The position numbers and the translations under genes were made by a program. A stretch of 64,000 nucleotides of DNA, from NCBI GenBank assembly GCA_032718475.1, contig JAUCBJ010007250.1:1-64000 (forward strand), given 5' to 3'. Position 1 is the stretch's first letter; every line of letters begins with the position of its first letter. The notes under the pieces were generated by a model, which was given only the letters and a program-made list of their open reading frames with translations, made no database searches and was not told where the DNA came from. Positions 1-30,876 of the stretch are shown piece after piece. This stretch comes from Nemertoderma westbladi (Eukaryota > Animalia > Xenacoelomorpha).

Positions 1-1198
1 TACCTAAGTCTGTGCTAGTTAGCTGTCTTTTAACAGCTGGGGGCAAATCAGGCAATTTGCGACGGTAATATGTTTTTCTACGCCTACTTAGATGAGATCT
101 ATTTCCTCCGCCTTCAGGATCGGTAGTATCGCCTTCCTCCGAGGATGTGTATCCCTGGCGCTTGGGAGTAGATTTTCTCATCATCTGCATTTGATTAGCA
201 GTAAACTGTTTATTTATACTGTCTTGTGTCTCTTGCAGATTTTCCAACTCCAGTTGGGTAGTCTGCTCAGATGCTCTCCTTTCTGCTTCTGCCACTGCCT
301 TTGCTGCTTTTCTTTCTGCTTCTGCATCTGCCGCCGCTGCCTTTCTTTCTGCTTCTGCATCTGCCGCAGCCGCCGCCTTTGCTGCTTTTCTTTCTGCTTC
401 TGCATCTGCCGCCGCTGCCGTTGCTGCTAATCTTTCTGCTTCTACTTCTGCCGCCGCTGCCTTCTCTGCTTCTGCATCTGCCATAGCCGCCGCCTTTTGT
501 TCCTCTATTCTTTTTTTCTTTATTTGTTCTTCTTGGACTCTAACGAGGCGGAGTTTTTCATCACATTTAGCTTGTTCTGCAGCTAACATTTCCGCATCGA
601 TTGCGTCCAACACAAGCTTGGTTCCTTCACTATTAGGGCGAAGTCCAGACAGTCGTCTCCTCAACTCTTCGTCTCCTATGAATCGCTGATAGTCTGACAG
701 ATATATGTCAATGGCGTCTCTAGTTCGCGGCTTCTCTGCTGCTGTTAATTCGCTTTCCACTTCGCTTTCCACCTCGCTTTCCACTTGAGAAGAAGTGGCG
801 TCGGTTGATTCTTCATAGGTTGGCCGCTCATCATAAACCATATCCGCCATCTTCGCTCCGCGTTCGGGCGTCCGCTCCACAGTATCCGAACTACTGGAGC
901 TATCGGGCCGCTGAGAACTAGGTTCTTGGCTAGGAGGTTGCTGCTGTTTTATAGCTTCTTCTTGATCCCGCTTGACTTGGGCCCGAGTGCCTATGGCAGA
1001 CCAACGGCGCTTCACTAACTTCGCAAAATGCGAAATCGCTTCTACCAACCTAGGTTCTGATACAACCACTGCAGGGGTTGCCCTTCTTACAGTATGAGGG
1101 GTTTCAGACCTCGGTCTGGGATTCTCTACACTTTGATCTGAGAAACAGTCTGTTGTTTCTAGGAGACTATCTGACAGAGTTTGCCTTGTGTCAGCCAT
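1..1198 (-). pseudogene. gag: Decayed gag N-terminus of element C with AEAERKAAAA-type coiled-coil repeats
   Basis: Homologous to 37430-39339 of B, including DAIDIYLSDYQRFIGD. No long ORF survives, and there is an internal deletion relative to B. Confidence 0.8.
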
Positions 1199-2544
1199 GT
1201 TTGTTTACACAGTTGAATGCCTACGGCTACAAATACAGTCAAAGTAAGTCTAGTAATTCAGTATCACCGTTAGCCTAATAATTAATTGCCGATACTGCTG
1301 CTCAGTGTAGCGTGATATATATATAATATATTAGAATACCGGTATGCTTATAATATATATATAAGTATGATTACAGACTAGATTTGTCACAGAGTACCGG
1401 TATATAAATTTAGCACAAATATATATAAATATATAATAGGCCTATCGTGAATACCGGTATACAGCTGACACTTATAGTATATATAAGTATAATTATTACA
1501 GACTAGAATTAATTACAGAATACCGGTATGATTTCAGCTTAAATTTATAGAATAAATATAATAAGCCTATTGTAAATACCGGTATGTCAATTATTTTAGA
1601 ATAATTGAATTTCTGAATATTTTAGGGTTACTTGGTTACTTTAACTTACTCTGTTACCGTTATTTAAGCAGTAGTCCAACTGATTTTGAGACCTAGTTGT
1701 TGTATGACAGGCCTACTATTTATAAATCGTTTGATTTGATTTATAATATTTATATACCCGTTTATATGGGTTTTTGTCAATATTTGAAATAAATGTTATT
1801 ATTTCTGGGGGAGTCACTACACAGAAGCTGAACGCCTCTCAGTGAAGTGCTATTTATTTGACACTAAAACTGATAATTCTAATTTACCTAAGTTACTTAA
1901 TTACTACAAATTACTTACGATACGGGTGAGATTAATTCTCTAGTTAAACACAACAAAATATTACGTACGAAATTTTTAGGGTAATTTTACAGGAAGTCTA
2001 CAAACCAGTCCAACAAAGGGTTAGATTTCTGGTTATTACAAAGGACAGGGTACTACGGTATTTAAATAATAAGTAGTAGTAAATATATTGTACTGTCCAG
2101 ATAGGAAAATACCACCGCCTGACGACCTATAACCGTATCGCTATAGGTACTACGTTATGTATCACGGATTGTTCCTACCCAGAAGCTAATAGAGCTAACG
2201 AATGTGCCTATCAACCACTTTACAACACAAATATACTGCCTACACTAATTACTTCGGAAAGCACTGTACACTAAACCCTAAATTAGGTACAAGTACCGGT
2301 ATAACAAATAATCAGTAGTTAAATATACTTGAACAGTTAAAAGAACCACGGCATCTGCTGGAGTGACCGAAGCACAAAGTCGTCAGTCTTTACCTACGCC
2401 AAGCAGCCCTGATGTAGTACCGGGGTTAGTTTAACTATAACGGTATGTATAACAAGCACAATTACTGTAGGAATAAACTTGGGGACATGAATGTTGCGAA
2501 TAATCGCATAAACTCTGAATAATAAATATTACGCTACCCGTACA

Positions 2545-3085: not shown

Positions 3086-3363
3086 ATCTGAACAATCTGA
3101 GCAGGGTCACACGCCTTCTGCTCAATATTAGCCTACTAGAAAATAAAACCGACAGAAATAGGTAAAATCTCAATAAAAATTCAGGGCTGCAGTCCCTGAT
3201 TAAGTACTAAGACCTACCAGTATACAATAATCAAATCGAATAATACTAAATGTACTTGTACAGCAGTACCGGTACCGGTTATGACAGTTAGGCCTACTGA
3301 CCTACAGAAGTACCGGTTCTTTGCAACCCTATTGCCTACTGCAATAAGATTATAAACTGTTAC

Positions 3364-4512
3364 TGTTCGCGCTTTTGAAGACCTTTAGCAGTTTAACCCG
3401 CCAAAATTTATATGTCTTTTAGTTAATTAAAACACCTTTAGCATACGACAATATTTTATGCTAATACGCAAAACATTAGCCGAAGGCAGCCCATGCGCGA
3501 TCATTCACCCGATGGATCTACACCCGGGAGGCTGAATTCGGATGCTTAAATTTTATTATTGCAGTGTAAGGTTGCAGTGTAAACTTACTGTATTATTCGA
3601 TAGATCGTTAATGATTAATTTCTGACAGATATTATTGGCTTTCGGGAAATATTAACAGTTCCTTTAGGACGTGGCGCTCTATCTATTTAAACAGAACTAG
3701 GACTTATACTAAACGCAACGATACTGCTTATGATTAAAGTATAAAGCGTATTCTTTAGGAAATACTTTGTTACCAATCACAATCATACACACTATTCTGC
3801 CGACCGTCAGTATATTTGATCACACATAAAGAGAGCAGTAATTGACTCATGTAGTGTCTGCTAAATAACATTAGATTCAATACACACCACATTAATATAA
3901 ATCGCAATTGTTATGTATAGCCGGTCTCTCTAACCTGTAGTGTATCAAGAAAATTGGGAATTTGGGTGATTTATCCGTATTATCCAAAGAGCAATATTTC
4001 CATCAACAAATAGGTACAATTAATAACTGACGGTAAATAACAGTACAAACAATATGATTAATGCAGTTAAATTAAGTGAGATAGTGAGTTCGTTCGATTA
4101 GTGAGATTAGTTTGGTAACAGTTTATACTTTCGATAATTTAAGCAGTTTTACTAGAGTTTCTAGAGCCGGTGTTTCTGGCTTAGACAGCAATAACAACAA
4201 AGTATCAAGTAAAAACAGTAAGACTGAACACTCTCCTTATGATCGGCCGAAAAGCTACACGTCGACAGGAAAAATCGCTCTGATTGGCTCAAGCCAAACA
4301 AAGAACCATGCGTCCAATGGCTGTTTCCATGTCAGCAACCAGCTGTTAGATGTCGTAATATGAATCATCACGGCTAAGCTGTGAAAGGTAGTTGGTGCAT
4401 TGCAGGTTTTTTGCCTTACCATGTCCGCCAAAACACGTATATAGCAGAATGACTTTTATGTCCGTTAAAACACCTGTAACGGTACCTTGCGGGCGAGGGG
4501 AATATATATACA
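3364..4512 (-). repeat. 5' LTR of element C
   Basis: Clear similarity to the B LTR (for example AAATATTAACAGTTCCTTTAGGACGTGGCGCT). TG...CA termini on the minus strand. Outer end approximate. Confidence 0.75.
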
Positions 4513-5218
4513 GTTAGAGAACCTTTTTAGAGTATTCCAGCGCCTGGGGGGAAACTGGATTGCGAAGCAAAAGGGGCCAGTTATATCCCACAGAAGCTTT
4601 TACAAAGTGCGTTTGCTAGAGTAGTGGAGGTCATGTCAGATATTGAATGTAGAGGAGGTAAGAGTCTTGGTAGAATTTTCTGCATTGCTACAATATCTAA
4701 AAGTTCGTGAGGGAAACTAGGCCGTTTGCTATGGTTACAAGGCTCATTGTTAATGTCTATTGCGCCGGATAACATCGTTAGGAGACTTACATCAATTTTG
4801 TATGAGATAGACAATGGGTTATGATCTGATATAGGTGGTTGATTTTGCAAGATATTAAGTTTCAGTTTGTCCAAGTCAGTATTGGAATTGCAAAGGCACC
4901 AATCCAGTTGTATCTGCAGAGACCCTCTCCAAAAGGTAATACCTCCATCGTTAGTAATATTCTTATGAACTAAGTGATTAATAGGTATCAGACTCATTTC
5001 CTTGATTATGTTGAGCAATGATTGGTTGAGCTTGATTATGTTTGTGTTTATTTTTTTATCTGGGTTTTGCGTAAATTTATAGGATGGACACACATCATTC
5101 AAATTTCCAAGTCTCGAGTTTAGGTCTCCTGTAATTATGATGGGAAGGTTGTTGTAACTTTTCAAAATAAGCTGGCCGGTGAGGGAAGCAAAGTAGTGTT
5201 CTGTAAAGTACGGGGAGT
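4513..5218 (-). pseudogene. LINE APE-endonuclease fragment (host of element B)
   Basis: ORF 4581-5165 has the APE motifs IITGDLNSR, QLDWCL and ISDHNPL. It continues across the B insertion at 42064-42170 (YIPP-YDSPYF-like, one frameshift) and probably at 44163-44357 (SWNING, IIFLRETH). Confidence 0.8.
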
Positions 5219-5223
5219 CATAT

Positions 5224-6327
5224 TGTTCGCGCTTTTAGACCTTTAGCAGTTTAACCTGCCAATTTTAGTTGTCTTCTTGTTTATAAATCGACTTTAGCCT
5301 AGACCAATTATTTAATGTACTGAAGTTACATCCGCCGAAGCCAGTCTGTGCGCGATCATTCACCCACAGTTAAGGGAGACTGGATTCGGGTGCTTTGAAG
5401 TTATTGCGGTGCAGACCTACTGTATTATTCGATTGATAGTTACTATATAATCTCTGACAAATATATTTACTTTCGGGGAAATATTAACAGTTCCTTTAGG
5501 ACGTGGCGCTTTAAGTATAAAAACAGAGTTATGACTTATACTAATCACAACTAGATGGCTACTGAGTTTCGTAAATAGCGCATTCTTTAGGAGATGCTTT
5601 ATTATCTGTCACACTACTTCACACGACTTCACACTACTGCACACTGATCTGCCGACCGTCACTGAATTTGATCATATATAAGGAAGATCGCAACTGACAC
5701 TTGTAGGGATTATGAAATAGCATTTAATTCACACAAAAACCACTATAATTTAAGTCGCAGTTGCTACCGGTAACCTGTTCCTCTCACCTTCAGTAATCAA
5801 GAAGATTGGGGGTTTTATGATTATTCATCGGTATTCTCCAAATATATCAGCAATATATATCCATATAACAACAATTAATAACAGAAGCAAATAATGCGGT
5901 GAACAATCAGTATGTGTTACGTAATGCATTGAGTTGTGTTATTCAGTATGTATGCAGGATAATAGATTTACGTTCTTGTAATCAAAGCCATCAGATGTTT
6001 AGGCCAAAGTCTGAAACTTCCAAAACAGAAGCACAGAAGAATTCTAAGCCGGTTATCTGGCTCAGAAAGGTAAACAAAGACCGTAATGCATTGCGCAGTT
6101 TTCCATAGGCCCCTGTTCAACATAAAATGAAAATCGCTCTGATTGGCTGAGCAGAACAAAGAGGTTCCACGTCTACAGGAAATCAGCTGACAGATTTCGT
6201 CATCTGAGCTCAAATCTTTTAGAGTATTATGCGCATTGCGGCAAAAATGACTTGTTATGTCCGCTAAAGCACCTACACTGTGCATTGCGGGGAAAAATGA
6301 CTTGTTATGTCCGCAAAAGCTTTTACA
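5224..6327 (-). repeat. 3' LTR of element B (1104 bp)
   Basis: Direct repeat of 41229-42058 with about 9 substitutions counted by eye. 6021-6296 is absent from the other LTR. Confidence 0.92.
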
Positions 6328-6405: not shown

Positions 6406-7385
6406 TTAGTCCTTCTTACGTGAACGGCGTTTACGAAGTTTTTTGAGGCTAGCAAGAGTCCTTTTCTCTTTGGGGTGAGCTACTTTACTAGGAGGGCTAT
6501 AACTCTTGGGTGAGGGGTGCAATACAATTGCATCGGAAGGTTTAGGGTTACAGTCGGTGTATCCGCCGGTCGAGGTACCCGGTTGATCGATATCAACCTC
6601 AGTGGAACGAGGTCGAACAACCTTCAGAGCGCGTTTCAAGACAGCAGCTCTTACTGGTCCCTGACGAGTCGTCTGCACGAGAGCGGTAGGCGGACCGTGA
6701 GTAGTGCAAAATTTCCTCGGTTTGATGGTTCTTTCTAACTCGCATTCTCGGGCTCTATATTCATAGGGTCGTCTATGAACTTCCTGTAGTTCTGGATGTG
6801 AGTTGATGAACAAGTCACCATATTCTGGATTTTGACGGATGAAGTTGATCAAGTTATAGGAATTAAGGTCATTAGGATTGATGTTCCTGAGATACTTGCG
6901 AACAAATTTGGTCGAAATATTCTCGCCAATGCGTTTCATTAGCTCGTAGCTCCGTGTACGAGATTTTTGCTCAACCGAAGCAAAGAGATACGGGTGAAAT
7001 GCATAAACTCCTTCATAGGCACGTCCAGGGTAGTATCGATGACGTGACTCGCAGTGGAGATCCGCGTTATCTTCCCAGGCTCGAATGTAGCGCAGGGCAA
7101 CCATTTCATCTACACTTTCCAGATCTCGGTTGAAAGGGCAATCAAAACTTGCGTGTCCTTTAAACTGGCAATGATGGCATTGAGTCATAAATTGAGGGCA
7201 GACTGCGAAGATGTGTAAGTTATTGAGTCTACAATACGCACAATAGATCTCCATTGTAGGTTGGTCTTGGAAGTAGGAGCAGGGTACGTTGGAGTCCACC
7301 GGGGTGAAGTGGTCTCGAGATGCGCATAATCGGCAACGTTTCCTAGAAACATAATTGGCATGCCGATAATCGTATGCAGTGAGAC
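6406..7385 (-). pseudogene. C-terminal part of element B ORF2 (zinc knuckles), split off by insertion of A
   Basis: Removing A and one TSD restores one frame: WYQGPQCL|TAYDYRHANYVSRKRCRLCASRDH. CAYC..H..C and CHHCQFKGHASFDC align with the A ORF2 knuckles, and WEDNADLH aligns with WEDLADEH. Confidence 0.88.
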
Positions 7386-7511
7386 TATAGAATTATATTC
7401 CCTAAATGCCGTGGATTTTCAAAATTTTATTTTATTCGAATTAACTTTGTAAAGATTGCTTTGAGTTCTCATTAGTATTGGTTCTATCTATTATGCATCT
7501 ATCGGTCAAGT

Positions 7512-7598
7512 GGTTCAGTAGCTCAGTCGGTAGAGCGTTGGAAATTATATGTGTAGTAGGTATCGAGTTCGAATCCTAATAAGTGCGAATTATTTTTT
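7512..7598 (+). promoter_or_regulatory. tRNA-derived Pol III module in LTR A (second copy 24539-24625)
   Basis: A-box/D-arm TAGCTCAGTCGGTAGAGC (7519-7536), B-box GAGTTCGAATCC (7565-7576) and T6 run (7593-7598). Anticodon, T and acceptor stems do not pair. Confidence 0.7.
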
Positions 7599-7655
7599 GT
7601 GCAGAATTTCAACTCATTTAAATTAACCGCTACAAATTAATTGCATTTGTCTGTA

Positions 7656-7920
7656 CCAATGAGACCGTAGTTATTTGATTGTAACCAATGTCGTGCAAGT
7701 TATATATTAGCTGGACCAATAGCTATCTTTAAAACCTTGTTAGAATCTATAGAACAATCGAGAATTTTCTCGATTGATTGCGGCACAAATTTAGTATATA
7801 AAGGTGCGATTTCGTTCATTAGTATACTTACACAAACTAATTCAATCCATCATTCACTTTCTGTCTTATTTCAGATTACATTGTTTATTGTATAATAGTT
7901 ATTATATCTTTTGTAATAAA
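7656..7920 (+). promoter_or_regulatory. Candidate Pol II promoter and polyadenylation signal of LTR A
   Basis: CCAAT at 7656, 7685 and 7716 (about 30-nt spacing), inverted repeat CAATCGAGAATTTTCTCGATTG at 7755-7776, TATATAAA at 7795-7802, AATAAA at 7915-7920. Confidence 0.6.
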
Positions 7921-9306
7921 AGTCAGAAATACTAGTCACATCTCAGCCCTTTTCTATCTGTTTTACTATGGTTTCACTACGGTGAACAAACTCAGGGACA
8001 GGATGGCCGGCTAGAGATCGGGCCGCAGCAATGAACGGGAACATCACGGGAATGTAGACGAGAGACAACCCGCAATACCATCTTAGAGTTATTCGCCCAT
8101 CGCCTGAAAGGTTAGACAGCGTTCGATCCTTGCTACCTAAGTGTAAGACCAAAAGATCAAAGGTAGACGTAGTGACGCGCTGTAAGCCCAAAATTACATC
8201 ATAAGGACTGTACTGTCTTGATTCAGGAAAACCCACAGTAGACCTTCACATTCCTACGGGGGGAGGGAGAGAGAGCAGATACTAGTATGCAGATAGGACG
8301 TAGGCACACCGGTACAAGGCATACACATTGGTTAGGGTGCAGCAAACTGTACGCTTAACTCTTGCTAAGTACAGGTGTGTGTGCGACTATTTGCCGTACA
8401 ACAGTGTCCATTACATCAGAACTTGTAGGCTAGGGGGTTGCTGTGTTTTCACCTGAATTGGGATTGTACCGTTCAGGCGGTAGGGCAGTTTACGCTAGGC
8501 GCAAATAAATTGAGGCTATCAGGGATATACTAACATCTACCGTGTCCCCGCCAACGCCCTAATAGGAAGTTACCCGGACTACCTGGGTGACTAAAATTCT
8601 AGATAGGAGCCAGGATAGCTATTAGTACCCGTACGCCTACAGTAGTAAACTAACACATCTCTTCTTTGTATCAGGGACCTGGTACCTAAAATTGCCGAAT
8701 TCTGGGCGTAGTATTAACCTTATGCCTGAATTTGAGTCCTGGAAATACGCAAGAGGGGAAGGAACCTTATCATTCGTGAGTATTGGACCTACAAGTTATA
8801 AAATTAGAATATTCGTAAAATGCACACCGTACCCAGTAATTATATATGTGAAGGAGCAAAACTGTTTTTTGACCGTTCAGAATTAACACACGCGCGTTAG
8901 AAATTATTTACACCTCGAAATATATAAAATTAACTTAGTCCGTACTGTGCTTTGCCCGCTAGTTAGACATCTCCAAATCTGCTCTATACCTAGCTAGCGT
9001 CCCTTTGCCCAACCATATAAATCACACCGCGGCAAAGTATACGAGCCTCTTAGTCCGTCAGTGAGTCAGCCTGATTTTAGGATTCGCTGCGCGGGATTTT
9101 GTTTTATCGAAGTTTGTCTGCTCGTAGACTGTTTTCTGCCTCACCGGTTATAAGAGATCGATACTGCAATATATTCGCTTACTTTGGGTTTACTGTTTTG
9201 GTGAGAAGGTCGGATTTATGATTTGATTTACAAACTTTACAGTAGGATATTGCAGGTATTGTTACCGTCTCTTCCGATAGTAGGAATAGGCGTATCTCTT
9301 CAATTA

Positions 9307-9317
9307 GTAGGAATGTG
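9307..9317 (+). promoter_or_regulatory. Non-tRNA primer-binding position of A, complementary to LTR 8247-8257
   Basis: GTAGGAATGTG directly follows the LTR. Its reverse complement CACATTCCTAC lies at 8247-8257 and 25274-25284. No TGG. Confidence 0.75.
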
Positions 9318-10114
9318 TTTTACTGAACTACGGTTCGGTAGGACTAAAGTTATTTGAAAATTTTGTATTTTGAGGTAAAAATTTGTATTTGATTAGCTAA
9401 GTGCTAATTTTTTGAAATAAAATTTGATTTGAACCGCGTGTGAAGTATTTTGGAATTGAATACCGGTGTTTAAAAGGGTTTAAATACCATATTGTACCGG
9501 TACAAAATTTTCGTAAAGTAAAACCTAACTCTTTTGTTTTTTCAGGATTCAGAACTCATTTCTAGGCTGTAACGGGAGCAAGACCGTGTTTAGCAAGTTT
9601 GGGAGATAGATAACTCAACAACTTTGGTTGGGAAAATCGCGTTTCGTCCGCAACGTTAAAAACGGAAAGGTTCACGTTCGGTTTGTATCTGGGAATCTGT
9701 TTTTCTGGAGAATTATTGGAGTGGGTGAGTTCGAAAAGTTGCATAAATAAGTTAGGCATTACCGTATTAGTTAAAATTATTGTGGGTTCCACTGTCTCAA
9801 GTATTTATGCATTCCATATGATTTCTTTGTTCATTGCTGAATTAGTCCGTATTATTGTATTTAATTTACCCTTCGATAACGCATATCGTTATCCGATTTA
9901 TTTGTTATAAAATTGGCCGCTAGGCTAATTTTATTATATACTTATTCCGTGACATTTATTTGCTGTAAAATTGGCCGTTTAGGCTAATTTTATCCATCTG
10001 CTATAAGATCGGCCGGTAGGCTAATTTTATAAGACTGTAATTAGTACCGTTTAGATAAAAATACAGTAAACTCGATACTTTGACACTCACTTCACTTGAC
10101 TTACAACTACTGAA

Positions 10115-13100
10115 ATGAGTGACAAACAAGACTATACGAAGAATACACAAACCGACTATGACTCATGTGACGCGGATAAGTCAGCAGCGGAAGAACCACA
10201 GGGGAAGACTCGCGAGCCTACCGAACCTACACCGTGTGCGTCACCAGTACATCCAACGGGAGTACCGGATGCCGTAGTACGAGGCGACGGCAGGACCGAG
10301 GACTTTCTAACTGTTCCGCAACCTAGATATAGGGAAACGGAAATGGTAAGTTCAGCAGGAAGCACAGAAAGTGTGGTTAGAAGCGTCGGTGGTTACATGG
10401 CGCATATTACCAGGAGTATTGGAGAAGGCCAACGCATATTAGACGGGTTGACCGCTCCGATGTCTCGATTCGAGTTCTACACCCTCCAGGTTAGAGTACA
10501 GAGTAAAGTATATAAGTCCGTAGATAATCTAGTTGGCCTACAAGATCTAGCTAGACAGAGACAGGACATGGATACTCAACTTAGAATCCTCGAGAAACTA
10601 ATGATCACTAGAGAGAAACTGATTCAGTTTAAGTCGACGATTAGACAGATACAACAGGAACAAGCGGACCAGTTGCTAGGTGAGTCAGTTTCGGACGAAT
10701 TATTACAGCCCGAGGAAGAACAGGAACTGTACCGACTGGATGGACAATTGAAACACCTGACGGATCACTTGCGCATGTGCGGCGAAGACGTCGGGGATTG
10801 GGAAACCGTGCCGGAGGCTACGAGGGAAACTTCACTCGCACAAATCGAACTGGCACCGGGAACACTAAATCAATCACTGGTGAGTATTCGTAGCGAAATC
10901 TGCGAAGGAAGTATGGTCACGTCAGAAGTCGCTCGACAACAGCAAGAATTCTGCCGACAACGACAAGAAATGGAAGAACAAGCTCAACTTCTAGTGATGC
11001 AAGCAGCAGTAGAGGAAGAGAAGCTACGCGTTGCGAATATAGTAAGAATATCTCATCTACAGGAACAAGCTGAATTAGAAGCAGCTGAAGTAGAAAGGTT
11101 AGAGTTAGACATTGCCCGACAAGCGGCAGCGGCAGCGGCCGAGTTAGAGCGACAAAACGCGGCGGCCGAGTTAGAGCGACAAAACGCAGCGGCCGAACTG
11201 GAGCGACAAACGGCAGCGGCAGCGGCGGAATTAAAACGAGAAAGGTTAGTCTCAGAAGCACGGGCCGAAATGAGAACACGGCAAATAAAAGCTCAATCTG
11301 CTATACGACAAGCAGAATTTGAGGCGCAACAACGACAAACGGAACAACGAGAGAAGACAGCTAAACTTCATTTCGAACTTGAGAAGAAGGCGAGAGAATT
11401 AGCGAACGCTGAGGAAGATCTGGATCAAAGGGCCCGCGATCGATCGATGAGATCTCGTGACGGACATGATTTGGACCAGTTAGAGGTAAGACATCGCCAA
11501 ATTCAGGAACGGAAGAAGGAAGGAAGCGTAGGAGCACCCGGACGGGAACGACAATTAGTAAAGGACGTGTGTCAACGATTCCCACAGGTAACTCATATGT
11601 TTGCACCGGTTACGACTAAGGAACCTGTTTCGATTGCGGGTAGTAGTAACATTTCTCCTATCCATGGTGCGACGGAACACAGGTTTGTTATTCCGGACGA
11701 GTTTACACCGCCAAGAGCAACGTCGTCGCCTATTCCGAAAGTCAAGGTAAGTAACCCACCGATTACGGATCGTAGTAGTTTATTGACCGGACCTGCACTA
11801 CTGACGACAAAACAGGTGAGTCCACCGTCGACACCTAAACCCGTTACACACTACGCTTACCCAATGACGTTTCGACCAACAAGGCCTTTGGATTCAAATG
11901 CTGTCACTCGACCACCGGTTCAGTTTACATCGCAATCTACGACTTCGAGGAAGACTTGTGAGCCTACCGAACAACGGAGAACAGTGGATACGCGACCGGT
12001 TCAGTTTACATCGCAATCTACGACTTCGAGGAAGACTTGTGAGCCTACCGAACAACGGAGAACAGTGGATACGCGACCGGTTCAGTTTACATCGCAATCT
12101 ACGACTTCGAGGAAGACTTGTGAGCCTACCGAACAACGGAGAACAGTGGATACGCGACCGGTTCAGTTTACATCGCAATCTACGACTTCGAGGAAGACTT
12201 GTGAGCCTACCGAACAACGGAGAACAGTGGATACGCGACCGGTTCAGTTTACATCGCAATCTACGACTTCGAGGAAGACTTGTGAGCCTACCGAACAACG
12301 GAGAACAGTGGATACGCGACCGGTTCAGTTTACATCGCAATCTACGACTTCGAGGAAGACTTGTGAGCCTACCGAACAACGGAGAACAGTGGATACGCGA
12401 CCGGTTCAGTTTACATCGCAATCTACGACTTCGAGGAAGACTTGTGAGCCTACCGAACAACGAAAGCGAGACGATGTTCCGAAACGAACCGTTAGAATTA
12501 GTACGACGCAACGGACGCGAGCACGTCGACCACCATATCCAGATGATAGTAGTACTTCGAGCGAATCGGATTACCCGAAACGCGAGGTATTTAGAACAGG
12601 GGCGGCCGATGAATACAAACGCGAGCGTTCAGACAACTCCTTTGCAGACAATCCTCCACAGAATACACCAACACAGAAGGCGTTACAACCAACGGACGCA
12701 ATTAGTACACAACAGTTCGCCGACATCCTGCGACCAGTTGTCAATAAGTTGGCTCAAATCGAGGAACGTCTGGAGGAAGGTTACACCGACAGTTCGAGAA
12801 ACTCCGAATTCGAACCCAATAAACACCCGAAGGAACCACAAAGACCGGTACCTTCAAACCCCACATCGTATCAAAGAAAAACGCCAAGAAGGGAGAACAA
12901 CAACCCGGTTGCCAACCAAGGACGCGAAACTTTGAACGTTGCCGAGGAGATAGCGAAATTCGCAGCCAGACAGGGATTGCCGGTACAACAACCACCGAAG
13001 TTTTCCGGTAGCTCAAAACACTGGCATACCTTCGTAGACTATATCGAATCCCAGATCGCCGTGTGCGCCTTTACATCACGGGAGAAGTTCAATTACCTGC

Positions 13101-16100
13101 TCCAAATGTTGTCAGGAGAACCTAAACGTTTGGCGGAGACCTTCGTTGGTGTACCGGACGCTTTCGAACTAGCGTACGATCGTTTGACTTCGATATACGG
13201 AGGTACAGTGAGTATGGCCAGGTCAGTAATAGAGGAACTCTGTAAGGGAGGGGCTATCACTAAACCCGTCGACTTACTAAAACTGGCTGACGAGATTAAG
13301 AACGCTATCACTACCTTAAGATCAATTGGACAACTTGATTACGGGAATACCCCTACAGTTCTATTAAAGATAATAGGACGACTCCACCATCGACTTCGTC
13401 GGGAGTGGAGGAAGGTCGAATACCAGCGAGAGGAGCGAGGAGGATTCCTAAAATTAGAAGATGTGTACCTTTTAATATCCAGGGAGGCGGTAGTTGAAAC
13501 TCGATCTAACTATACCGACCAGCACATCGTGGCAGAAGGGATCACACTGCCATCCTCCAACCGACAAAAACCCCAGACAACATCCACAAAGACGGCCACT
13601 TACGCCACACCGACGGAATCACGACAATTCTCAGACGGTAATAGAGTATCTGCGCCCATTGGAACGAAACAGACGAGACAGCAACTCAGCGCCGACTTCA
13701 ACGGCTGCCAATACTGCGAACATTTAGGTAAGCGGTATATTGGTCACAAGTTACGAGGTTGTCGACAATTTCGCGAGTTGAACTCAGAAGAACGACGGCT
13801 GCAGATACGGCCACTGGACTCTTGTTGGCGGTGTACGCGACACGGACACGTCCGTAAGGATTGCCCAAATACCGACACTTGTCCATCCTGTGGACGCAAC
13901 CACGACGGTCTGCTCCACACAGACAGCCACACGCCGACGAAACGCTTCGCCAGGGAACACCCGGAAGCAGCAGCGAGATGTGATGCGGCCTACCGAAAAC
14001 GAGAATCGAAAACGACTCCAACATTCGTGACCCATATAGAGGATTGCTTTTCAGAACAATCCGGATCGTCGGACGAAGAATCAGACGACGACGAATATTC
14101 TAATGGAGACGAACAACCGTCAATCGCGCTCCTGACCACTGACCAACTGAAGGGATTCAGTGTAATCCCGATTAAAGTTACTGGCACAAAGGGGAGCAAA
14201 AGAATCTACGCGATTCTAGACTCAGCCTCATCTCACAGTTACGTGGATGAAAAGATAGCTGACGTCGTAACGGATCTCAGACAAGGTAAACACGTCAGTT
14301 ATACAGTAAGTAGTATGCACGGCCAGCGTGCAATACCAGTGACACGAGTTAAGTTGGACTTAGACTCTCTTCTTCCAAAATCGCAACACAGCGAGAGGGA
14401 GAGGTCTTTGTTGCCCTTTAGAGATCTAACCTTTGCGGCCACGAAGGACTTTAGTAACCTACTAGGTCCAGTGCCGGAACAATCTCTGGAGGACCGTAAG
14501 TATTTCAGACACCTTGGTGTACCCGAATGTCCTGTCAATTATAGATCGGTAGCAATGCTGATCGGGACGGACCAATTCAACCTACATCAGGTGTGGGAAA
14601 CCAGACCATCGGCAGTTGTAGCGGGAAACGCATACGCCTGCAGAACGCCGATAGGGTGGTATACTCGAGCGCCTGTGCGCACACTAGACGTAAGTGACGA
14701 GGAAGACGACGTACAGAGTACATGTAGTTTATTGACTACAAACTCAATTCATTCCTTTTCACACGACGTGAACCATACTACGCTACAGTCGACAAAACAT
14801 GACAGACGTGTAACTAGTATGATAAGTCACAAGGAGCAGCTAACCCACAAGGTGAGTTTAGAACTTGGGGAGAAGACGAATCAGCTAGAGATTCCATCGA
14901 CGACAGATGATAGGCTTGCGAGTCTACCTACCCCAACAACCTCAACAGTGCCCGTCGATATCGACGATGACGCGTTGAAAATTCATCAGTTGGAACAAGC
15001 CGCCTTGGACAAAGAATTAACGGAGAAGACTATCAGGTGGTTAGAACAAGATACAGCTGAACCTGGTAGCTACGAACCTTGTATGTCGGAACAGGAGAAA
15101 CAATCTCTGAAGATCATGGAGGATACTATCCGACAGACGGAGGACGGACATTACGAGGTGGGTATGTTATGGCGTAGCCAAAGTCCTAAACTTATAAACA
15201 ACTACCCACTGGCTTTAAGACGTCTACACTCAATACGGCAACGTCTATTAAAGGACGAGAAAGCCCATCTGCAGTACAACACTCAGATGGAGACGTATTT
15301 GACGAAGGGATACGCTATCCGAATGACTAACCCGGAGCAAGTGACCGACCAGACATACTACCTGCCACATCACTATGTGAGACATCCCGACAAACCAGAC
15401 AAAGTACGCGTAGTCAATGACTGTGCGGCTCTGTTTGAGGGAATGTCCCTCAATAGTGAGTTGATGGATGGACCGAACATGAATAATTATCTTATGGGGG
15501 TGATTATGCGCTTCCGTCAGCGTCAAGTAGCCTTTACTTGCGACGTTGAAGCGATGTTTCACCAAGTGAAAGCGTTAGAGCGAGACAGAGACAGTTTGCG
15601 GTTTCTCTGGTATCCGGAAGGGGACTTAAGTCTACCACCAGCGACTTACCAAATGCAAGTTCGCGTTTTCGGTGCCAGAGACAGCCCAAATTGTACGATG
15701 TACGCCTTGAAGCAAGCCGCTAGAGATCAGAAACATTTGTATGACCCAGAGATAATTAGAATTGTAGAACGTGACTTTTACGTTGATGACGGTTTACAAA
15801 GTTGCGACACAGTAGAACGTGCTACAACAGTAGCACATCAATTACGGGACTGCTTGGCGGGCGGAGGTTTTAACCTCACCAAATTCGCCTCAAACAGTGC
15901 CGAATTAGTTGACTCATTCGGAACTACTGAGCGTGGAGGTGGTGACATAGACCTAGAGTTCGAACCACTACCGACGACTAAGGTGTTGGGGCTCTTTTGG
16001 GACCCAAACACAGACAACTTTCGAGTGAAGGTGAGACTGGACAGTCAAGGAAACACACTGACCAAGAGATCATGCTTGTCAAAGTTGAGCCGATTGTTCG

Positions 16101-19100
16101 ACCCGTTAGGATTCATCAGTCCAGTGATACTGCAAGCCCGCATTTATATGCGCAGTATATGGAAGGATGGACTAACGTGGGACGAGCCGATCTCATCAGA
16201 CCAAGTGGACTTATGGAAGACCTGGGAGGCGGAATTGTCTTCGCTAGAGGATTATTTCATACCCAGGGTTTACTTTCCATTACAGAGTACATTTCCTGAC
16301 AACTTAGAACTACACTGTTTTTCTGACGCCAGTGACAACGGTTTTGGTGTGGCAGCGTATTTGCGCAGACAAGTAGAATCAGACGAGTTCGATGTTTCGC
16401 TCATTACTTCCAAGGCTAAGACCATGCCTACTAAGTATATGACGACACCACGAGCCGAGCTACAAGCCGCGACCCTGTCAACCACCATCGTGAACCTCAT
16501 ACAGACAGAACTACAGTCGAGTTTACAGATATTTTATTGGACTGACGCGACGTTGGTTTTATTTTACATAAACAACGACACACTCGAATTCAAGACATTC
16601 GTAGCTAACCGTCGCGCAGAGATTCTAGACCGTTCGATAAAAGAGGATTGGCGACATTGTCCCGGACCACAAAACCCAGCTGATATTGCGTCGCGAGGAA
16701 TGATGCCTGAGGAATTCTGTAAACCGGAGAACAAAGAGTTTTGGCAACACGGACCCCAGTTCTTGCAGAAATCGACACAAGATTGGCCTCCGCTATACGA
16801 CAACAAGTCCAACACCATTCCTAAGGACGCCGAAATCAAGAAACCAAAAAAGGGGAAGACAAAGAAAAGGACAACGGCGGCGAAACTAAAGAAAAAACCG
16901 AAGGCGAAATGGAAGGATATAACTTCAAAGGTCAAGAGAGGAAGACTTGCGAGCCTTTCTACACCAGACATATCGCCAGACGGTCGACCAGACATATCGC
17001 CAGACGGTCAACCAGACACTTTACTAGACAGTCAACCAGACATTTTGCCAGACATATCACAAAATGTTCCACCAGACGCTAGTAACACACTGACAAACAG
17101 TAAAGCCGCAGTTTCTCTATTGGAGCGGCCTTCTATTGACAAACAACTAGATACGTTACCAGACGTATCGCCAGACACATTACTAGACAGTCGACTAGAC
17201 ACTAGTAATGTATTGACTAACGATAAAGCCGCAGTTTCCCTATTGGAGCGGCCTTGTATTGACAAACTACCAATTTTGACACACTTGAGCAACCATAAGC
17301 ACGGTGAAACCTCATGTATTACAGATGTGGGTAGTACCTACGCTAATGTAAATACAGGTGTTACTCTGCGCTCAAGAGACATACCGAACTTGCAACCTAT
17401 AGTGAGACCTGGGATTAATGTCGGCAGGAAAATAAGTTTACCGAAACCTGCTGACCCCATAGAGTTCAAACCACCATTAACGATCGACTTACAAAGTACC
17501 GACAATCAAGGTAAGAAGACGAAGAAGGACAAATTACTTGTAGACCCGGACGGATCAACAGTCAACAAGGGAATACTTACCGGCGGACCCGTGGGCCCTT
17601 CTAGTAATTCAAAACCTTCCAAAATCTCCATTGACTTACCTGATGACGTCACAAATACTTACGTCGACCGAATTGTAAACTTAACAGACTCTTGGTCGAA
17701 CGCTTGCCGAAAATTAGCGTGGATTGTACGTTTCGTACAATACGTTAAAGGCAAACGTGACTTTACACGTCGACTTACATTGGCTGAGATTGACAGGTGT
17801 GAGATTAAATTAATTCGCCATTACCAACTGCGATATTTCGCGCGCGAATTCACATCCATAAATCAAGGTCAACCAATCAAGTCGTCACCGATACTGAGTT
17901 GGAGTCCGATTATTTATAATGGCTTAATTTGTCATAAATCTCGGCTTCAAAACATTGACTTTAACACAAACTTTAGGTACCCAATAATAATACCGCAACA
18001 CCACGAACTACAACGTGCAATGATACTGGACGCACATTTACATCTGAAACACGCTGGAAGACACCACTGTCTTTCCTACTTACGTACTAGATTTGTATTA
18101 ATTAGACCCAGTAAAGCATTGAGTTCAGTGACACGTACGTGTATTATTTGTAAAAAGGTACATTCTAGAATAGGTACCCAAGAAATGAGTGAACTATCAC
18201 AAGCACGACTTCAAGCATTCAGACCACCTTTTACAGAGACTGGAATTGATTGCTTTGGTCCCATACATACGAAACGTGGACGTATACTAGTAAAACGCTG
18301 GGGACTGATTTTCACATGTATGTCCAGTAGGGCAGTTCACATTGAACGTGTGATGGATCTTTCCACCAACGCGTTTATACTAGCACTGCGGCGATTTATC
18401 GCTAGACGCGGACTAGTAAAATGCTTGTACTCAGACCAAGGGACAAACTTTGTTGGTGCTCGGAATGAGATTGCTAGAGCCTTTAAGAGATTAGATCATG
18501 ATCAAATCTCGAACGAACTGCAACCTCACAAGATTGTTTGGAAGTTTAATCCTCCAGATAGTCCTTGGAGAGGCGGAGTCTGGGAGAGATTGATTAGATC
18601 TATCAAAACGGCCATGGCAAAGGTCATTCCAGTAAACCACATATTAACAGACGACCAACTGACAACATTGTTTGTTGAAATCGAGGCAATACTAAATACT
18701 AGACCAATAGTATTAGTACCCGATGACAAACAATCTCAGTTCGCTTTAACACCAGCACACCTGCTTATGCAGGCACCGACCACATTGACGCCGATTTCCA
18801 TTCCAATGGAAAGTGATAGTTACGGTAGAAAAGCGTGGAAAATCACGCAACTACTGGCTAACAAATTCTGGGAAATATGGCAAAACCATTATTTGCCCTC
18901 TATTTCTGCCAGAACAACATGGTACAATAACACCCGCGCATTAAAGCCGGGAGATCACGTGCTGTTGGCAGAAGTGAATCTAAAAAGACGCTTCTGGATA
19001 ACAGGTGTCATTTTAGCCACACATCCATCTATGGATGGAGTGACAAGAACTGTGACGGTACGAACAATTGACGGTCGTACAGTAGACAGACCAACTCAAC

Positions 19101-19171
19101 GTCTCGTACTTCTTGAAGAGACTCGTAACGAGTCTGGAGACTACAAATCTCCACCTAATACTAGTAAATAA
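10115..19171 (+). CDS. gag-pol: BEL/Pao Gag-Pol polyprotein, 3018 aa (Gag, Zn knuckles, aspartic protease, RT, RNase H, integrase)
   Basis: Gag PPKFSG..W..F; CWRCTRHGHVRKDC and CPSCGRNH; protease ILDSAS; RT YLPHH, DVEAMFHQV, FYVDD; RNase H HCFSDAS, PRAEL, WTDA, NPADIASRG; integrase H..H..CIIC, GIDCFGP, SDQGTNF, WERLI; domain order PR-RT-RH-IN. Confidence 0.96.
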   Translation: MSDKQDYTKNTQTDYDSCDADKSAAEEPQGKTREPTEPTPCASPVHPTGVPDAVVRGDGRTEDFLTVPQPRYRETEMVSSAGSTESVVRSVGGYMAHITRSIGEGQRILDGLTAPMSRFEFYTLQVRVQSKVYKSVDNLVGLQDLARQRQDMDTQLRILEKLMITREKLIQFKSTIRQIQQEQADQLLGESVSDELLQPEEEQELYRLDGQLKHLTDHLRMCGEDVGDWETVPEATRETSLAQIELAPGTLNQSLVSIRSEICEGSMVTSEVARQQQEFCRQRQEMEEQAQLLVMQAAVEEEKLRVANIVRISHLQEQAELEAAEVERLELDIARQAAAAAAELERQNAAAELERQNAAAELERQTAAAAAELKRERLVSEARAEMRTRQIKAQSAIRQAEFEAQQRQTEQREKTAKLHFELEKKARELANAEEDLDQRARDRSMRSRDGHDLDQLEVRHRQIQERKKEGSVGAPGRERQLVKDVCQRFPQVTHMFAPVTTKEPVSIAGSSNISPIHGATEHRFVIPDEFTPPRATSSPIPKVKVSNPPITDRSSLLTGPALLTTKQVSPPSTPKPVTHYAYPMTFRPTRPLDSNAVTRPPVQFTSQSTTSRKTCEPTEQRRTVDTRPVQFTSQSTTSRKTCEPTEQRRTVDTRPVQFTSQSTTSRKTCEPTEQRRTVDTRPVQFTSQSTTSRKTCEPTEQRRTVDTRPVQFTSQSTTSRKTCEPTEQRRTVDTRPVQFTSQSTTSRKTCEPTEQRRTVDTRPVQFTSQSTTSRKTCEPTEQRKRDDVPKRTVRISTTQRTRARRPPYPDDSSTSSESDYPKREVFRTGAADEYKRERSDNSFADNPPQNTPTQKALQPTDAISTQQFADILRPVVNKLAQIEERLEEGYTDSSRNSEFEPNKHPKEPQRPVPSNPTSYQRKTPRRENNNPVANQGRETLNVAEEIAKFAARQGLPVQQPPKFSGSSKHWHTFVDYIESQIAVCAFTSREKFNYLLQMLSGEPKRLAETFVGVPDAFELAYDRLTSIYGGTVSMARSVIEELCKGGAITKPVDLLKLADEIKNAITTLRSIGQLDYGNTPTVLLKIIGRLHHRLRREWRKVEYQREERGGFLKLEDVYLLISREAVVETRSNYTDQHIVAEGITLPSSNRQKPQTTSTKTATYATPTESRQFSDGNRVSAPIGTKQTRQQLSADFNGCQYCEHLGKRYIGHKLRGCRQFRELNSEERRLQIRPLDSCWRCTRHGHVRKDCPNTDTCPSCGRNHDGLLHTDSHTPTKRFAREHPEAAARCDAAYRKRESKTTPTFVTHIEDCFSEQSGSSDEESDDDEYSNGDEQPSIALLTTDQLKGFSVIPIKVTGTKGSKRIYAILDSASSHSYVDEKIADVVTDLRQGKHVSYTVSSMHGQRAIPVTRVKLDLDSLLPKSQHSERERSLLPFRDLTFAATKDFSNLLGPVPEQSLEDRKYFRHLGVPECPVNYRSVAMLIGTDQFNLHQVWETRPSAVVAGNAYACRTPIGWYTRAPVRTLDVSDEEDDVQSTCSLLTTNSIHSFSHDVNHTTLQSTKHDRRVTSMISHKEQLTHKVSLELGEKTNQLEIPSTTDDRLASLPTPTTSTVPVDIDDDALKIHQLEQAALDKELTEKTIRWLEQDTAEPGSYEPCMSEQEKQSLKIMEDTIRQTEDGHYEVGMLWRSQSPKLINNYPLALRRLHSIRQRLLKDEKAHLQYNTQMETYLTKGYAIRMTNPEQVTDQTYYLPHHYVRHPDKPDKVRVVNDCAALFEGMSLNSELMDGPNMNNYLMGVIMRFRQRQVAFTCDVEAMFHQVKALERDRDSLRFLWYPEGDLSLPPATYQMQVRVFGARDSPNCTMYALKQAARDQKHLYDPEIIRIVERDFYVDDGLQSCDTVERATTVAHQLRDCLAGGGFNLTKFASNSAELVDSFGTTERGGGDIDLEFEPLPTTKVLGLFWDPNTDNFRVKVRLDSQGNTLTKRSCLSKLSRLFDPLGFISPVILQARIYMRSIWKDGLTWDEPISSDQVDLWKTWEAELSSLEDYFIPRVYFPLQSTFPDNLELHCFSDASDNGFGVAAYLRRQVESDEFDVSLITSKAKTMPTKYMTTPRAELQAATLSTTIVNLIQTELQSSLQIFYWTDATLVLFYINNDTLEFKTFVANRRAEILDRSIKEDWRHCPGPQNPADIASRGMMPEEFCKPENKEFWQHGPQFLQKSTQDWPPLYDNKSNTIPKDAEIKKPKKGKTKKRTTAAKLKKKPKAKWKDITSKVKRGRLASLSTPDISPDGRPDISPDGQPDTLLDSQPDILPDISQNVPPDASNTLTNSKAAVSLLERPSIDKQLDTLPDVSPDTLLDSRLDTSNVLTNDKAAVSLLERPCIDKLPILTHLSNHKHGETSCITDVGSTYANVNTGVTLRSRDIPNLQPIVRPGINVGRKISLPKPADPIEFKPPLTIDLQSTDNQGKKTKKDKLLVDPDGSTVNKGILTGGPVGPSSNSKPSKISIDLPDDVTNTYVDRIVNLTDSWSNACRKLAWIVRFVQYVKGKRDFTRRLTLAEIDRCEIKLIRHYQLRYFAREFTSINQGQPIKSSPILSWSPIIYNGLICHKSRLQNIDFNTNFRYPIIIPQHHELQRAMILDAHLHLKHAGRHHCLSYLRTRFVLIRPSKALSSVTRTCIICKKVHSRIGTQEMSELSQARLQAFRPPFTETGIDCFGPIHTKRGRILVKRWGLIFTCMSSRAVHIERVMDLSTNAFILALRRFIARRGLVKCLYSDQGTNFVGARNEIARAFKRLDHDQISNELQPHKIVWKFNPPDSPWRGGVWERLIRSIKTAMAKVIPVNHILTDDQLTTLFVEIEAILNTRPIVLVPDDKQSQFALTPAHLLMQAPTTLTPISIPMESDSYGRKAWKITQLLANKFWEIWQNHYLPSISARTTWYNNTRALKPGDHVLLAEVNLKRRFWITGVILATHPSMDGVTRTVTVRTIDGRTVDRPTQRLVLLEETRNESGDYKSPPNTSK
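11915..12462 (+). repeat. Perfect 81-bp tandem repeat (6 full + 1 partial copy) in gag of A
   Basis: Encodes PVQFTSQSTTSRKTCEPTEQRRTVDTR repeats. Units appear identical. Confidence 0.95.
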
Positions 19172-19724
19172 TTAGGAGTTTACAAATAGACTTCCACGTA
19201 CCTGTACACCGTAGTAAGGACAGCGGTAGAATTCCATTGTCTTTATATGTGAACATTGAGGGTAGTACCCTTATGTGTCACATAGGAGCGGGATTTGTAG
19301 GTATAAGAAATGGAATTCTACTTGGAACTCACAATATTGAGACATTTTCGAAATTTTAGACAATCCATTTGGATTTGAAAAATTTTAAAAATTTTCTCCA
19401 GTGAATAGATTTCAGGGTACAGTCGGGTGGAACTTAAAATTAGAGAAACAAGAGAGGAAGACTTGCGAGCCTTTCTTAAAATTTTTAATTAAATTTTACA
19501 CGGTCTTGTTTCAATAAGTTACGTCAAAATAGACTCACCTATATTTATTACTAATTCTTGATTGCTTATTTTCTGATAATAGTTTGGGATCAAAAGGTGA
19601 GTATTTTAGACTCACGGCCAGTTTAGCCCAAATTCGTTTTTACTTCGGCAAAAAATTTTAGATAAGAAGCAGCGTGTCATTAAAGAAACCCTAGATCTTA
19701 GGCTATGGGTAGGAGGTTAGAGCG

Positions 19725-22700
19725 TTGTCGAAGCCCAAAGGGCAGACGAAACTCTCACGTCTCCTCACAACTAACTACAAACTCTGTTGTATTCCCTCTA
19801 GTAGTAATGATTATGTAACTACACCTCTAATTATGGAGAAAGGGACACAAGGAGAGCCAAGATGGGGATATGATATCCAAGAGGAGGCAGCAGCGCCATT
19901 CGAAAGATTTGGAGCCAAGGATTACACTATATTTGGTATAAAAGAATTATCGGAAAGTACAGCGAAACTCGCGAGAACTAAATATGACTCGAATGTATTA
20001 AAGAGAAGGCAAAACGCATTAAACGAAAGAATCGAAAGTTTGCGCCAAACCTTCAACGAACTTTACCCGTACGATGCTTTGTGTGACACGGGAGACATTA
20101 GCGAAGACCCCGATACTGAAATTAGTCGTTTGTATCATACCATGCAATACCTAAAGGCGCATGAACCTATGCCTGCGGTACGCGATGAATTCGATGGAAT
20201 GCATCTTTACAGACGAACTCGAGGGGACGATAGAGAAACCAAGGAAGCATTTTCAGTTTATAAACTTTATTATCAATGCGGTTCTTGTATGCGCGAACAA
20301 CGAAATGCGATTCCGATGCGTTTGAATAAGGAAAATCCCGAACCGATATTGGCGAGGTGTTCGAATCATCAACAACTACGCTACCAGGAAGGAGGGTATC
20401 CTTTATCGAATCCATATCATTCATTTGCTATGACCGGACCAAAGGCGGGAGAAACTGTCATTTACCCACCTAAGGTTGTTGAACCCGATGTATTTGAACT
20501 TACGCTGGACGAGGCGAATCAGTCAACCCGCGAAAAGAAAGAAGCTCTTAGCCTATACAGAGCCTACAAGGCTTTCGAGAAAGGTGAGATGGAAGAATGG
20601 GGTGGAAGACTCGCGAGCCTACCTTGCCATTGGACGTCACACGATCAAACTTCAGCTAAGGAGATGACACCGGAAGTTTTCGAGAGCATAAACTTTGCTC
20701 AAAACGTTATTCAGAGATTACAGATTGCATCCCCGGAGAGGCCAAGAGAAATGCAACCGTATAGTACTTCAACTACGAAACCATTGAGTACGACACTCAA
20801 TTTCCCTATTAGTATACCAGTCCGACAGGATACGACGTACGAAATACCCATCGTGGATCATCCAGAAATCATTTCAAACTTGGAGTTTCTTCCTGCAGTT
20901 GTTTTCAGCGATATGAGTAAGATATATGATTTGCGTAGACATATTACTCAAAAGGTCGTGAACAACGTTCCACCTCATATTCAAGATTTTAAGGAACTGG
21001 ATAGAGCTGGTGCCGACATAGCTCCGAGTAATCTGAAAGGATATCTAACCAAGACGATTCGTTTATGGATTGGAATCGGAACCTTCGAGTCGGATACGGA
21101 TATTGCCGCAGATTGGCGAGGTAAGGTTATTCGTTTCGATGAGGATAAGGATATAGAGAAGATTTGGCAACCTTCGGAAGAATTGTTGGATGAATGGACT
21201 AGGACGTTTAGATCGTTTCAGGAAAACGGTTATATGTTTTACGATAACGAGGGCGGCAGTCATCAGCAGAGTTTGACTTCTAAGACTATACAGATTAGAG
21301 CGGCGGACGGAGTCCTGCACGTTTTCAGTAGACAGAGGAGCGACAAACGAATGCCGATACCTCCAGCGAATACAAAGCGACACCATCTTATCACCGATAT
21401 AGTAAAGAAGATGGACCAAGCTTGTAATATTGACGCTAGAATGCTACCGAAGATGGTAAGAAACATGATTTTAGATAAAACTGTTGTAAAGGTTGGATCA
21501 GGAGTAAGGGAGGATTTAATTAGCGACTTCGTTGGCATGACGGACAGCGATGACCGACTACCGACACCATACGTCGACACTCGACCTCTTATTCTGTGGT
21601 CTATAGAACAGGGATATTTTCGTGAGTATAATACTCAGAAGACTGGAACTGGATACATTTCCTACCTGTTATTCAATTGGGATTATAAGGAAGGTAAAAG
21701 AAACAAGTATATTGAAACTTATGGAGAAGGTGATACTCCAGATATGAGTGAGTTTGAATCACAGCTTAAATGGAGAGGATGCGTGTATTGGGCTATTACG
21801 TCACCTCCAAGAGCGGTCTTACAATATTATTTAGCGATAGAGTCGTCAGTGAATGTTTGCCTAATCGCCGACATCGTGTCTCGGACTCTCAAAAGACATC
21901 CACTTTGTCTCGGAGAAGATCATACGTTCTACATGGAAGGGAGAATTCGTACCGACGTGTTTAGACGATTCCTTGAACCCTTCTACAACTCCGACGCTCA
22001 GTGCAATGCCTTTACTCGAGCAGGATTTAGTATATTTCGAGACGTGTATCTTCGCTGTGCGGGATCTCTTATCGAAAGACCATCTATGTTTACACTGTTA
22101 CCCTATGAAGGAGAACGTATCGTGGAGATTACGGATGAATCACGGCAGACGCGCGCGCCTATCGGTCACCTTGGTGATGAATTCGAAGTAACTACTACGA
22201 TCGCCGACGATCCTTTAGAGGAACTTCTTGAGATAGAAAGGAACCTCCCGAAGAAATCTCAGACGGAGATTCGACAACTTGAAGCAACAGATGCTATAGT
22301 TTGCCTACAACCTTCAGAAACCTACCAACCCATAGACCCAGATGATTACGATTATAGTATGGGAGGAAGCGCTCGACCGATTGGAGATCTTATATACGAA
22401 CGAGTGTGGTACCCTGCTAATACGATGTGTAGTAAATGTGGCGTCGCTGGACATCATATGGCAAAGTGCAGTGGAAAGCACATTACTACGACTCAGCTAA
22501 TCTGTGGATGGTGTGGGGATCAAGGGTCTCATACCTTTTATACTTGCTGGAGATTTATGGCTCAATGTACTTACTGCAATATAAAGGGACATCGAGCATC
22601 TGAATGCCAACTGAGAGACATACCTTATGAACATGAATCTGTAAAACTCGTGAGGAAGTTATTTGATGAGTGGGAAGATTTGGCCGACGAACATGTATCG

Positions 22701-30812: not shown

Positions 30813-30876
30813 CAAAAAAAAACCGTTCGTTTAAAAAATATAAAATAATGTAGTCACATACCCACTCCAGACGCTG

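Follow-up and report, generated by a model that had tools for sequence, protein, structure and literature searches.

Three BEL/Pao elements in the window

The window analysed here is a 64,000-nt stretch of Nemertoderma westbladi DNA (assembly GCA_032718475.1, contig JAUCBJ010007250.1, positions 1 to 64,000, forward strand). It holds three BEL/Pao elements, called A, B and C, which were delimited by self-comparison and by their flanks, with LTR ends set by direct repeats and 5-bp target duplications (Table 1). Element A sits inside the second ORF of B. Its ends read TA...TA, not TG...CA (7386-7393 and 26326-26333), and are bounded by a clean 5-bp target duplication. Since its 5′ and 3′ LTR copies show only three differences and the target duplication is clean, we regard A as a recent insertion with non-canonical ends. 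Element B spans 42058 to 5224 on the minus strand and has TG...CA LTR termini. For C, the window contains the 5′ LTR, the leader and the start of gag, the remainder lying beyond the window edge. C is related to B (82% over 2 kb of internal sequence), and 528 of 697 aligned LTR bases downstream of the site discussed below are identical between the two.

Table 1. Features of elements A, B and C in the window. Segments and sites are those predicted from the sequence.
Feature	Position	Strand	Remarks
Element A 5′ LTR	7386..9306	+	1921 bp; termini TA...TA; TSD GAGAC at 7381-7385 and 26334-26338
Element A 3′ LTR	24413..26333	+	purine-rich tract ending GGAGCGG just before
A predicted self-primer segment CACATTCCTAC	8247..8257	+	3′ LTR copy at 25274-25284
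A candidate poly(A) signal	8504..8509	+	sole AATAAA/ATTAAA between primer segment and LTR end; putative function
A primer-binding site	9307..9317	+	from first base past LTR; without TGG
A gag-pol frame, open	10100..19171	+	3023 aa stop to stop; DUF1759, Pao peptidase A17, integrase zinc finger, DUF5641
A second ORF	19713..23558	+	1281 aa; zinc knuckles below Pfam cut-off; weak 3′-5′ exonuclease lead
Element B 5′ LTR	41229..42058	-	830 bp; about 274 bp missing near outer end relative to 3′ LTR
B predicted self-primer segment AAATCTATTAT (element sense)	41964..41974	-	
B primer-binding site	41218..41228	-	from first base past LTR; without TGG
B gag-pol region	30070..39342	-	several broken frames, partial internal duplication; RT-RNase H 45% identical to A
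B second ORF, part upstream of A insertion	26331..27149	-	
B second ORF, part downstream of A insertion	6406..7392	-	
Element B 3′ LTR	5224..6327	-	1104 bp; primer-segment copy 5959-5969; TSD CATAT at 5219-5223 and 42059-42063
Element C 5′ LTR	3364..4604	-	1241 bp; outer end supported by purine-tract loose end at 4604 in run X1
C predicted self-primer segment TATAAACTGTTAC (element sense)	4115..4127	-	
C primer-binding site	3351..3363	-	from first base past LTR; without TGG
C gag frame start	2..1204	-	homologous to B; continues beyond window

The domain order in A is DUF1759, Peptidase_A17 (1e-41), Integrase_H2C2 and DUF5641, and B has the same order in broken frames. PF05380 was present in 120 of 120 homologs among the matches listed. 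By protein ancestry A and B are assigned to BEL/Pao, and C is placed with them by its DNA similarity to B, its pol lying beyond the window. The best listed database matches to the B pol piece were 33-36% identical over most of it, the named ones coming from sea urchin, coral, ribbon worm and fish. The gag of each element contains tandem repeats that keep the reading frame, the units being 81 nt long in A and alanine-rich, of 9-18 nt, in B and C (11833-12561, 37646-38200).

A second ORF is common to A and B, and the two versions are homologous (E 5e-24 and 2e-20). It encodes zinc knuckles and gives a weak 3′-5′ exonuclease lead (Atlas 0.86); no homolog was found at E<=0.001 among 4833 candidates. 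Rotifer LTR elements that carry DEDDy exonuclease ORFs are known from the accessible text of PMC5408684. A role of the second ORF in primer trimming is conceivable.

No tRNA gene was detected in the window by ARAGORN, and Rfam gave nothing above the gathering score. The LTR of A contains a tRNA-like stretch at 7510-7599 (copy at 24537-24626), with A-box and B-box matches at 7519 and 7565 followed by a T run. It received no ARAGORN or Rfam call and its folding z was 0.04; it is possibly a captured Pol III promoter, and it excludes the primer segment.

Further elements are present as well. A young Ty3/gypsy element (53716-58933) has 282-bp LTRs that are 99% identical, followed by a TGG primer site of the usual kind. 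A 1.1-kb element with long inverted arrays of a 15-nt repeat (48067-49177) is adjoined by a two-ORF non-LTR retrotransposon encoding endonuclease and RT (49536-53743).

Each primer-binding site is complementary to its own LTR

The earlier note had reported that none of the three elements has a TGG tRNA primer-binding site and that the bases just after each 5′ LTR exactly match the reverse complement of a site in that element's own LTR. Seven of the seven coordinate pairs behind this report were confirmed against the sequence, and both statements hold. In A, B and C the 8 nt that follow the LTR contain no TGG, while the Ty3/gypsy element, used as a control, has TGG 3 nt past its LTR and a self-match of merely 5 nt. 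The longest anchored LTR complement is 11 nt in A, 11 nt in B and 13 nt in C, and each of these helices begins with the base that directly follows the LTR. Allowing a splice junction gave no longer helix in any of them.

Dinucleotide shuffles of the LTR attained these lengths in 5 (A), 6 (B) and 2 (C) of 5000 cases, in agreement with the chance of about 1e-3 per element that had been estimated from the sequence. Among other window positions, the same lengths were attained at 7 (A), 2 (B) and 0 (C) of 9139. The three sites differ in their letters. The six cross-element pairings, each matching one primer site to another element's LTR, gave 4-9 nt. Once the 3′ ends of the B and C sites are put in register, 4 of 11 positions are different, without a mismatch in either helix.

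The distance from the site to the inner LTR end is 1049 nt in A, 735 nt in B and 751 nt in C. The earlier note had B and C using a homologous LTR position. The 5′ edges of their sites align, after GAACGT/GAAAGT, but the alignment is gappy, with a 12-nt indel in or beside the site, and exact positional homology is not certain.

The contigs of run X1, the one run found to contain the stretch and one whose RNA nature is a guess, showed no GT-AG joint and no ends. Two of them have C>T at 3363, their cover leaving out the LTR counterpart (4096-4190), and a 35-letter insert occurs in X1 contigs at 3369/3321.

A second 5-bp helix behind a bulge had also been described for A and B. As a general feature this was rejected, as it reached p<0.05 in just 3 of 15 elements (B, L007 and L021) with gaps of up to 5 nt. 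In A the letters exist (8236-8240 with 9321-9325) but need a 6-nt gap, and C has none. If the geometry of the fission-yeast element Tf1 holds, such a helix would fall upstream of the RNA start.

Most relatives have a corresponding self-complement, mainly across a predicted splice junction

Covariation between primer site and LTR in homologous elements had been named as a check in the earlier note. We examined relatives in metagenome contigs. An alignment of A, B and 19 homologs served as query, and the best 80 of 554 confirmed stretches (37-42% identity) were taken as loci, so that selection was by RT similarity alone. A flanking direct repeat was found in 40 of the 80 loci. We picked 18 where the repeat seemed to reach the LTR inner end; two of them lacked a CA/TA end, and 16 remained. 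L033 was dropped for want of such an end, L024 was moved to the blind scan described below, and 12 of the 40 repeat-flanked loci fell outside the tests. The first matching rule allowed a spacer of 0-6 nt and one GT-AG intron, with consensus donors favoured.

Under this rule, a perfect helix of 10-15 nt was present in 12 of the 16 relatives with both LTR ends fixed. It is contiguous in L007; in the other 11 it forms only across a predicted GT-AG junction within the LTR, with introns of 71-186 nt and 4-6 paired nt ahead of the donor. Each of these helices was attained by 0-2 of 200 shuffles. The letters differ between relatives while the helices remain perfect, and mismatched cross-pairs reached 10 nt in 4 of 376 cases and 11 nt in none of 376. 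Covariation of site and LTR is thereby seen within the window as well as between these distant families. The predicted splice junction across which most relatives form the helix is a feature that the earlier note had overlooked.

A second rule accepted any GT donor and required a pyrimidine-rich acceptor. Helices of at least 10 nt were then found in 11 of 16 relatives (L001 and L021 dropping out and L065 coming in) versus 9 of 376 cross-pairs, two of which attained 12 nt. Eight of the ten spliced matches under this rule use GTAAG or GTACG donors. Among the relatives missed by the first rule, L050 and L062 have a clear TGG site and a self-match of no more than 5-7 nt, L031 departs from its sister L021 by one mismatch, and the donor of L065 is weak.

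The blind scan covered 11 loci in which the LTR start alone was fixed, with four shuffles per locus as null (maximum 10). Spliced helices of 10-15 nt were found in 8 of the 11; four of these loci are near copies or sisters of tested ones, and L012, L016, L039 and L045 are new. L025 gave a contiguous 13-nt match, and nothing was found in L008 and L064. At L025:16-620, where the LTR end is not fixed, a TATA box is followed by the contiguous self-match past the likely start and then by an intron-like stretch. Searching metagenome contigs with an LTR pattern gave 0 matches, and two scans of viral contigs gave 0 loci.

These results bear on whether the complementarity is accidental, or a one-off inverted duplication without function that was simply inherited. 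The window itself offers just two independent lineages (A, and B with C), and the pairing was first picked by eye. However, the chance per element is about 1e-3, the letters differ in each element, and the pattern recurs in relatives that were chosen without regard to it. The shuffles, the relatives and the second splice rule largely refute such an origin, which we consider extremely improbable. On this evidence, the complementarity in A, B and C is real, goes beyond chance and is common to a wide set of relatives.

In the tree, A and B form one clade (100/99) within a 23-row group that stands apart from five insect proteins (100/100). This group includes the relatives described above, and the sister of A+B is not resolved within it. 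L025 groups with the TGG-type loci. With L065 labelled as TGG, the self-priming label requires two changes and does not mark a single clade; its match under the second rule suggests that L065 is of the self type. The tree gives no ordering of intron gain and loss. A, B and C are likely the form with a long leader and no intron within a wider BEL/Pao group, whose primer mostly arises when an intron is removed from the 5′ LTR.

Position of the helix in the element RNA

In the 12 relatives the LTR ends 87-278 nt past the helix, compared with a loop of 735-1049 nt in A, B and C, and a poly(A) hexamer lies 11-128 nt past the helix in 10 of the 12. Starts of Pol II transcription are marked by Y|R steps. 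A Y|A step forms the 5′ edge of the helix in 7 of 12 relatives (background 0.136, p 4e-4), a count that is not fully independent because the rows are related. In B the helix begins at T|A; for A and C to agree with Y|A, one end pair has to be counted as chance. In the relatives, the Y|A edge and the downstream poly(A) signal are indirect signs that would suit a primer located, like that of Tf1, at the 5′ end of the RNA.

It is also conceivable that the elements self-prime with something other than the first bases of their RNA. The site would then lie in U3 or in a longer 5′ region, and the primer would come from the 3′ LTR copy, from internally cut RNA or from a separately made LTR RNA. An R-U5 of the length required in A, B and C would far exceed that of the relatives. 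A TATA box about 30 nt upstream of the site was found in none of A, B and C and in 1 of the 12 relatives, and B and C have CCAAT boxes 160-190 nt upstream of the site. Duplex folds of A, B and C extend 15-45 nt upstream of the site by weaker, bulged pairing, which in these models would fit a longer primer, and the 13-nt helix of L025 (LTR end not fixed) lies about 17 nt downstream of the TATA-predicted start. Against these points, the Y|A edge is sharp in the seven relatives and in B, those relatives have only the few paired bases noted above ahead of the donor, and the second helix is not enriched. If the intron were spliced out of the 3′ copy, progeny would tend to lose it, yet it is kept in 11 of the 12 relatives. 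We consider a primer from elsewhere in the LTR RNA unlikely.

When the RNA ran from the site to 60 nt past the LTR, the helix was part of the predicted minimum-energy fold in all three elements (mean pair probability 0.69-0.96). With a leader of 200 or 400 nt it appeared in only 3 of 54 folds, so folding gives no support for the helix.

The 3′ end of the predicted primer is AC in 11 of 12 relatives and also in A and C; B ends in AT. This common end could mirror the end of a common host primer, which would suit a reading in which a host tRNA fragment or another small RNA primes and the helix between LTR and leader serves packaging, dimerisation or translation control. Half-tRNA primers do occur in Copia lineages according to the available sections of PMC6317226. 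However, the sites vary between families beyond the first two bases, each matching its own LTR alone, and even the close relatives B and C have diverged at 4 of 11 positions. The helix also always spans the position required for a primer 3′ end, 0-4 nt from the LTR. Judged by these sites and helices, a host small RNA as primer seems to us quite improbable.

Proposed priming mechanism

Priming by the element's own LTR RNA, independent of tRNA, is the best reading of these sequence data. This had been the central inference of the earlier note, and it gains support at the sequence level from the same signature in 12 of 16 distant relatives. We hold self-priming in some form to be highly probable for A, B and C, and it is probable, with less assurance, that the leading 10-13 nt of their own RNA serve them as the minus-strand primer in a Tf1-like geometry.

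In such a scheme, transcription would begin on the 5′ edge of the LTR site or one base further in. The 5′ end of the RNA would anneal to the primer site of the same RNA or of a second packaged copy. A cut in the RNA directly behind the paired bases, presumably made by the RNase H of the element, would leave a 3′-OH beside the LTR end, and strong-stop DNA would cover 735-1049 nt. Retroviruses recopy their primer site from the primer while the plus strand is synthesised. If the primer is likewise copied in plus-strand synthesis in these elements, the primer site would be rewritten each time, and this would explain the perfect covariation, in which the helix is kept while its letters drift. The long R-U5 of A, B and C would not be shortened by splicing in the packaged RNA, so pairing between two packaged RNAs would be possible. 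For the relatives, the primer would be the one place where an LTR intron could be spliced at the 5′ end and still be inherited through the 3′ LTR copy.

Two local features of A should also be noted. A purine run, GGGGGGAGGGAGAGAGAG, occupies 8258-8276, from the base directly after the predicted cut, and B and C have no such run. At 9256-9547, the primer site lies between a donor-like site near the LTR end and a leader sequence that scores as a strong acceptor, and splicing from one to the other would remove the primer site from the mRNA.

Extending these results to the wider group, we somewhat favour a scenario in which a large animal BEL/Pao branch abandoned tRNA priming. Most of its members would form a 10-15-nt self-primer through removal of an intron from the 5′ LTR, with host splicing licensing reverse transcription, and the window elements would be intron-less with a leader of up to 1 kb.

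Significance

Self-priming has so far been shown for fission-yeast Ty3/gypsy elements and predicted in one plant Copia lineage, as given in the accessible text of PMC7175516 and PMC6317226. If confirmed, the BEL/Pao elements described here would make a third LTR superfamily with self-priming, which bears on whether self-priming is ancestral or has arisen repeatedly. Such elements would escape host control via tRNA fragments, and LTR annotation based on primer-binding sites would undercount them. Through the spliced primer of the relatives, the onset of reverse transcription would be coupled to splicing by the host, and the literature search found no paper on such a connection. The primer predictions are precise to the base.

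Comparison with known systems

Literature searches found no description of self-priming in BEL/Pao or of a spliced primer, as the earlier note had also stated for self-priming; papers were mostly judged by title and the start of the abstract, and subscription papers, Repbase reports and supplements, which lay outside the scope, may hold one. In term look-ups of the text available, PBS and tRNA were absent from PMC3118150 and PMC554778, primer and tRNA from PMC6238403, and PBS, primer and self-priming from PMC2774666. The accessible parts of PMC3601003, PMC6934838 and PMC8220671 do not link self-priming to BEL/Pao. An element-encoded tRNA-like primer, reportedly present in Cer7 of C. elegans, found no support in a literature search and was not used.

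The ICTV description of Belpaoviridae (genus Semotivirus) gives an 18-nt primer site for tRNA-Arg or tRNA-Gly, LTRs of 0.2-1.2 kb and genomes of 4.2-10 kb (PMC8742986). The window elements share with BEL/Pao the domain set and order, the LTRs, the 5-bp target duplication and the purine tract before the 3′ LTR. Element A differs from that description in having no tRNA site, a 1.9-kb LTR, TA...TA ends, a length of 18.9 kb and an extra ORF. By the bases that follow their LTRs, which lack TGG in the first 8 nt, all three elements depart from the ICTV account of priming.

In the plant Ty1/copia lineage TAR (Houba, Osr-1), self-priming was predicted from an LTR complement of at least 10 bp located 0-5 bp after the LTR, according to the sections available of PMC6317226, where the same measure was applied to Tcn1. 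The helices of A, B and C have this length and position. TAR differs in belonging to the Copia superfamily and in its plant hosts, and in the same accessible text its self-priming is likewise just predicted.

A close parallel is with Tf1, in which the RNA's initial 11 bases pair with the primer-binding site and RNase H cuts between bases 11 and 12, as described in the available text of PMC7175516. Tf1/Tf2 of Schizosaccharomyces pombe, Tj1 of S. japonicus, the Tf1/sushi group and Tcn1, all Ty3/gypsy, are alike in having a primer-binding site complementary to about 11 nt of their own LTR and no tRNA match (PMC7175516 and PMC4600332, in their accessible parts). A and B belong to another superfamily, as seen from their Pao peptidase A17, DUF1759 and DUF5641 domains, and lacking Ty3/gypsy ancestry they are not members of this group. 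Unlike Tf1, A, B and C have a loop of 735-1049 nt, and in most relatives the primer lies across a predicted splice junction, a feature that the same parts of PMC7175516 and PMC4600332 do not mention for Tf1. What A, B and C share with Tf1/sushi is a complement of about 11 nt to their own LTR adjoining the LTR end.
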